A stretch of DNA of 583 bases from the sequence record FN641801.1; one strand, given 5' to 3'. This document shows, piece after piece, positions 1-583 of this stretch. A program made the position numbers and the translations under genes. The notes beneath the pieces were generated by a model. It saw only the letters and a program-made list of their open reading frames with translations, was not told the origin of the DNA and did no database searches. The stretch is from a phage. Positions within the stretch are counted from its first letter, which is position 1. Every line of letters begins with the position of its first letter.

Positions 1-22
1 ATTTGGGGGGTTCAGCCGATGA
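1..22 (+). other. Footprint of degenerate forward g23 PCR primer (MZIA1bis-like), inosine positions read as G; primer-derived, not native sequence
   Basis: Bases 1-22 (ATTTGGGGGGTTCAGCCGATGA) match the 3' 22 nt of the primer I recall as 5'-GATATTTGIGGIGTTCAGCCIATGA-3' if each inosine is read as G (window positions 6, 9 and 18, all codon third positions). The window starts exactly inside this primer and the G-run at 5-10 is what I/G substitution would produce. Confidence 0.75.
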
Positions 23-583
23 ATAACCCTACCGGCCAGGTATTTGCCCTGCGTGCAGTTTACGGTAAAGACCCTGTAGCTGCTGGTGCTAAAGAAGCTT
101 TCCACCCGATGTATGCTCCGAACGCTATGTTCTCTGGTCAGGGCGCTGCTGAAGCTTTCGAAGCTCTGGCTGCAAGCAAAGTTCTTACCGTTGGTAAAAT
201 TTATTCTCACTTCTTCGAAGCAACCGGTTCTGCACACTTCCAGGCTGTTGAAGCTGTAACCGTTGATGCCGCCGCTACTGATGCCGCTAAACTTGACGCT
301 GAAGTTACCAAACTGCTCGAAGCTGGTAAGCTGGCAGAAATCGCTGAAGGTATGGCTACTTCTATCGCCGAACTTCAGGAAGGCTTTAACGGTTCCCAGG
401 ATAACCCGTGGAACGAAATGGGCTTCCGCATCGATAAACAAGTTATCGAAGCTAAATCCCGTCAGCTGAAAGCAAGCTACTCCATCGAACTGGCACAGGA
501 CCTTCGTGCAGTACACGGTATGGATGCAGATGCTGAACTGAGTGGTATTCTTGCTACTGAAATCATGCTGGAAATCAACCGCG
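1..583 (+). CDS. 23: Major capsid protein gp23 of a T4-type (T-even-like) myovirus; internal fragment, partial at both ends (about 194 codons, frame 1)
   Basis: Seen in sequence: frame 1 is open across the whole window (codons att tgg ggg gtt cag ccg atg aat aac cct ... atc aac cgc), while other frames are interrupted. The translation contains long motifs I recognise from T4 gp23: GVQPMN-PTGQVFALRAVYGKDPVAAGAKEAFHPMY, ATDAAKLDAEV, EIAEGMATSIAELQEGFNGS-DNPWNEMGFRIDKQVIEAKSRQLKA-YSIELAQDLRAVHGMDADAELSGILATEIMLEINR. By my recollection this corresponds roughly to residues ~110-305 of the ~521-aa T4 gp23; that numbering is from memory and not computed. Codon usage is strongly biased (GCT Ala, GAA Glu, GGT Gly, AAA Lys, CTG Leu), as expected for a very highly expressed structural gene. 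Confidence 0.95.
   Translation, partial: MWGVQPMNNPTGQVFALRAVYGKDPVAAGAKEAFHPMYAPNAMFSGQGAAEAFEALAASKVLTVGKIYSHFFEATGSAHFQAVEAVTVDAAATDAAKLDAEVTKLLEAGKLAEIAEGMATSIAELQEGFNGSQDNPWNEMGFRIDKQVIEAKSRQLKASYSIELAQDLRAVHGMDADAELSGILATEIMLEINR
559..583 (+). other. Footprint of reverse g23 PCR primer (MZIA6-like, present as its reverse complement); primer-derived
   Basis: Bases 559-583 (GAAATCATGCTGGAAATCAACCGCG) are the exact reverse complement of the primer I recall as 5'-CGCGGTTGATTTCCAGCATGATTTC-3'. The window ends precisely at the primer's 5' end and encodes the conserved EIMLEINR motif. Confidence 0.75.

Follow-up and report, generated by a model that had tools for sequence, protein, structure and literature searches.

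The stretch of DNA analyzed here, 583 nucleotides in length and referred to in its entirety as the window, is almost certainly a PCR product obtained with MZIA1bis and MZIA6, the primers designed for studying the diversity of g23 in T4-type phages, and its template would have been the DNA of phage VR5 or of another phage sharing its g23 allele. We infer this PCR origin from the sequence alone. When the window was compared with the VR5 genome, all eight differing bases turned out to be primer bases and the interior was identical at 536 of 536 positions, which bears out the claim of the preliminary description that the window is a primer-bounded g23 amplicon. The gene, the phage, and the primer pair are all already known, and the window contains nothing novel.

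The gp23 fragment and the primer footprints

Frame 1 of the window is open on the plus strand from position 1 to position 582, with neither a start nor a stop codon, and corresponds to residues 109–302 of the 520-aa gp23 protein of VR5. Its translation matched the Pfam family PF07068 (Gp23) with an E-value of 3.4e-44 and a score of 152.2 bits at a cutoff of 24.4, covering profile positions 24–188 out of 376. Window residues 1–194 aligned without gaps to residues 111–304 of T4 gp23 (PDB entries 6uzc, 7vs5, 5vf3, and 8t9r; E of about 1e-101). The window is therefore colinear with T4 gp23, the major capsid protein of the T4 head, and falls into the same Pfam family, but it represents a diverged ortholog with scattered substitutions, clustered at roughly window residues 50–110. 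As an internal fragment devoid of the start codon, the stop codon, and the N-terminal propeptide/prohead cleavage site, it does not amount to a complete gp23. The exact 194-aa translation found no match in a collection of 15 billion proteins.

Four ORFs in the alternative frames, at 86–259 and 263–469 on the plus strand and at 207–311 and 477–578 on the minus strand (33–68 aa), were also considered. All begin with GTG or TTG and are entirely contained in the strongly supported gp23 frame, and we regard them as mechanical by-products. The base counts of the window were near equimolar (A145, T146, G146, and C146), with a GC content of 50.1%.

The preliminary description maintained that any search in the window is limited to the capsid gene fragment, and indeed no locus architecture was found within it. 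It further maintained that the genomic context is absent. This is correct for the window itself, which carries none, but the context can be recovered from the genome of VR5 (KP007359). The complete g23 gene, coding for 520 aa, occupies positions 101711–103270 of this genome in the order g21-g22-g23-small opposite-strand ORF-g24. The small ORF between g23 and g24 is VR5_174 (KP007359 103320–103586, minus strand), a hypothetical ORF with the note "similar to VR7 gp190". The GC content of the VR5 g23 gene is 47–51% vs. 37–43% for its neighbors, and the GC-richer g23 would be in line with a strongly biased codon usage of a late gene whose expression is very high.

According to Filée et al. 2005, as quoted in PMC4796948, MZIA1bis is a 25-nt primer of the sequence 5'-GATATTTGIGGIGTTCAGCCIATGA-3' and MZIA6 has the sequence 5'-CGCGGTTGATTTCCAGCATGATTTC-3', the latter being given also in PMC5990851. 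The pair serves mainly for environmental surveys of T4-type phages. The alignment of the published primers with the window ends gave matches at positions 1–22 and 559–583. The forward-primer footprint, positions 1–22 on the plus strand (ATTTGGGGGGTTCAGCCGATGA), equals bases 4–25 of MZIA1bis and would be of synthetic rather than template origin. The inosines of MZIA1bis fall on window positions 6, 9, and 18; all three are read as G, and these are the sole positions of the footprint that do not match the primer literally. The reverse-primer footprint, positions 559–583 on the minus strand, agrees at all 25 bases with MZIA6 read in reverse complement, and the last base of the window is the 5' base of that primer.

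Apart from the inosines, the 22-nt form of the forward primer matches the window exactly, and the 5' end of the window is 3 nt short of the primer 5' end. The full 25-nt MZIA1bis, sought in the window with up to three mismatches allowed, gave no match because the window begins at base 4 of the primer. The earlier assertion that both ends coincide exactly with the primers consequently holds for positions 559–583 and, with the inosines taken as G, for positions 1–22, but fails for the first three bases of MZIA1bis (GAT), which are missing at the 5' side. Trimming or loss at the read end would explain their absence. The full MZIA1bis/MZIA6 product from VR5 has 586 bp, whereas the window holds 583 bp, without the 5' GAT. 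Neither primer pattern occurred in 200 dinucleotide-preserving shuffles of the window (0/200).

Comparison with the VR5 genome and the choice of template

The window was aligned with the complete genome of Escherichia phage vB_EcoM-VR5 (KP007359). VR5, a low-temperature T4-like coliphage from Lithuanian sewage, is classified as Dhakavirus vr5 (Straboviridae, Tevenvirinae); the VR phages were described in 2010 (Kaliniene et al., Arch Virol 155:871, cited in PMC3622015). The window shares the reading frame of the VR5 g23 gene, and its template-derived interior, positions 23–558 on the plus strand, was identical throughout to KP007359 102057–102592. Differences from VR5 were found at 8 of the 47 footprint bases vs. 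0 of the 536 interior bases, and all eight carry the base of the primer. At positions 6, 9, and 18, the window has G and VR5 has T where the primer contains inosine. At positions 12 and 19, the window has T and A, respectively, as does the primer, and VR5 has C at both. The three remaining differences, at positions 564, 568, and 582, are each C in the window and in the primer and T in VR5. The chance that all eight differences would fall within 47 of the 583 positions is 1.0e-9 (hypergeometric).

Since the differences from VR5 are confined to the footprints and each of them equals the primer base, the terminal bases appear to be primer-derived and should be trimmed. The earlier advice to remove the terminal 22 and 25 bases as primer sequence proved sound, as the VR5 genome contradicts the window in exactly those bases. 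Comparison of the window ends with a complete T4-like genome thus revealed an assembly that opposes the primer-type bases instead of supporting them.

PCR primers are incorporated into every product strand, and the ends of a product show the primer sequence instead of that of the template. Opposite a deoxyinosine, polymerases place C, so that inosine positions come to be read as G in the product. In the case of the window, each primer would have become the 5' end of a product strand, overwriting the template bases beneath it, and the result would be 536 genuine g23 bases (23–558) between 22 and 25 synthetic ones. A literature search combining inosine with the primer name found no paper on the inosine read-out in MZIA1bis amplicons.

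The synthetic ends would have replaced eight template bases and so created two false substitutions, Cys110Trp and Leu115Met, with the three changes at the 3' end being silent. The first putative artefact is the TGG (Trp) codon at positions 4–6 on the plus strand, for which the template has TGT, coding for Cys110 of VR5 gp23 (Cys112 of T4 gp23). The second is the ATG (Met) codon at positions 19–21 on the plus strand, presumably imposed by the primer on the VR5 template CTG (Leu115); Leu is present at this site in VR5, VR26, VR25, VR20, and other close relatives. The differences at 564, 568, and 582 are all synonymous. Judged from this alignment, Cys110Trp and Leu115Met in the window translation are PCR artefacts and not the mark of a variant allele. 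Literal mismatches between the primers and VR5 lie at primer positions 15 and 22 of the forward primer and 2, 16, and 20 of the reverse primer. The 3'-terminal 3 to 5 bases of both primers match VR5, and such matched 3' ends are compatible with successful priming on this phage.

A megablast search of 50,697 phage records returned 928 with a match; all of the matches listed were Tevenvirinae-type phages, and wherever the matching gene was named among them, it was the major capsid gene. The best matches were VR5 (98.8%; KP007359 / NC_028881), ESCO10 (97.6%), and VR26 (95.4%); beyond Dhakavirus, the top T4-like genomes showed approximately 77–84% DNA identity to the window. The major capsid gene of phage vB_EcoM_ESCO10 (OM386655 89472–91031) is labelled only "hypothetical protein" despite its 97.6% identity to the window. 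An identical interior was found in VR5 only among the 50,697 phage records, and the next nearest genomes had 8 (ESCO10), 21 (VR26), 24 (VR25), and 31 (VR20) interior differences. As these genomes vary at 8–31 interior sites, the lack of any difference in 536 bases points to VR5 or to an identical allele.

The window resembles the MZIA1bis/MZIA6 survey amplicons in having the same footprints at both ends and covering the same gene segment, but, in contrast to the environmental ones, its template matches a coliphage that has been cultured and completely sequenced. The main use of the primer pair in environmental surveys nevertheless raises the question of whether the amplicon came from environmental DNA or from another isolate sharing the g23 interior of VR5, and not from the VR5 isolate. 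The footprints erase the bases that could tell near-identical templates apart, and a 536-bp stretch of a capsid gene is insufficient to identify a whole genome. We nonetheless consider such an origin unlikely, given that VR5 alone has the identical interior among the phage records searched and that the closest competitor, ESCO10, is already eight bases away. The work of 2010 in which the VR phages were described is also said to have typed them by g23 PCR, and the record of the window probably stems from such typing. It is somewhat less likely still that the template was an unsequenced relative, isolate or environmental DNA, with the identical 536-bp g23 interior. The choice of template leaves the conclusion about the amplicon unchanged.

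The G residues at the inosine positions bear also on the identity of the forward primer. A variant, MZIA1bis-mod, in which N replaces the first two inosines (5'-GATATTTGNGGNGTTCAGCCIATGA-3'), is in use (PMC5990851) and would leave the same footprint whenever G is incorporated. Its involvement, or that of a similar variant, is very doubtful: N at two positions would yield G at both in only about 1/16 of molecules, whereas G at all three positions would be expected from the original inosine primer. Moreover, the variant is used in PMC5990851 for pyrosequencing surveys and not for typing of single isolates. Whether the original primer or a variant was applied is immaterial, the ends being primer-derived either way.

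Natural diversity at the primer sites

The natural variation at the primer sites was followed in a sample of 65 gp23 relatives, all genome-derived, from IMG/VR. Of these, 47 had T and 18 had C at window position 6, and 52 had T and 13 had C at position 9; G was found at neither position in any relative (0/65 each), nor did any of the 65 combine G at the three inosine positions. The residue encoded at window positions 4–6 was Cys in 55 relatives and Ala in the remaining 10, with no case of Trp. T4 gp23 in the solved structures likewise has Cys at the site of the Trp of the window. A natural Cys-to-Trp capsid variant is essentially excluded.

The scans for the forward 22-mer gave no exact match in the IMG/VR viral contigs. 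When any base was allowed at the third inosine, the 22-mer was matched neither in 241 million metagenome records nor in 185,579 species genomes. The exact 25-mer site of MZIA6, which served as the positive control for the scans, was detected in 11 IMG/VR viral contigs (21–235 kb).

These data also speak to the weakest of the alternatives, a natural genomic excerpt, e.g., one cut by in-silico PCR from an assembled T4-like genome, whose terminal bases would be natural. The complement of MZIA6 does occur naturally, as seen in the 11 contigs and in 10 of the 65 relatives with no mismatch to it, and 5 of the 65 relatives have a forward site without non-inosine mismatches, but the phages with a natural exact MZIA6 site share only 66–80% protein identity with the window, all three collections, viral, metagenome, and genome, lack the forward 22-mer, G at position 6 or 9 and Trp at residue 2 are missing from all the relatives, and VR5, the sole genome with the identical interior, differs exactly at footprint bases, which effectively refutes this explanation and leaves it with a vanishingly small probability.

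The Dhakavirus relatives, including VR5, have 1–3 mismatches to MZIA6, making the reverse primer imperfect for the very group amplified here. On the forward side, the fixed TG of the primer mismatches the lineages with Ala (GCN) at two bases. This mismatch may bias surveys against such lineages.

Consequences for the use of the record

The value of the finding that the window is a g23 amplicon with primer-derived ends lies in quality control only. If the 47 terminal bases are left untrimmed, the apparent divergence from VR5 rises from 0% to 1.4%, and two false amino-acid substitutions enter the translation, including a Trp where all 65 relatives have Cys or Ala. Untrimmed primer ends also make unrelated clones look falsely alike at their termini. 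Should the template have been an unsequenced relative of VR5, the window would be a hint that the VR5 capsid allele is more widely distributed.
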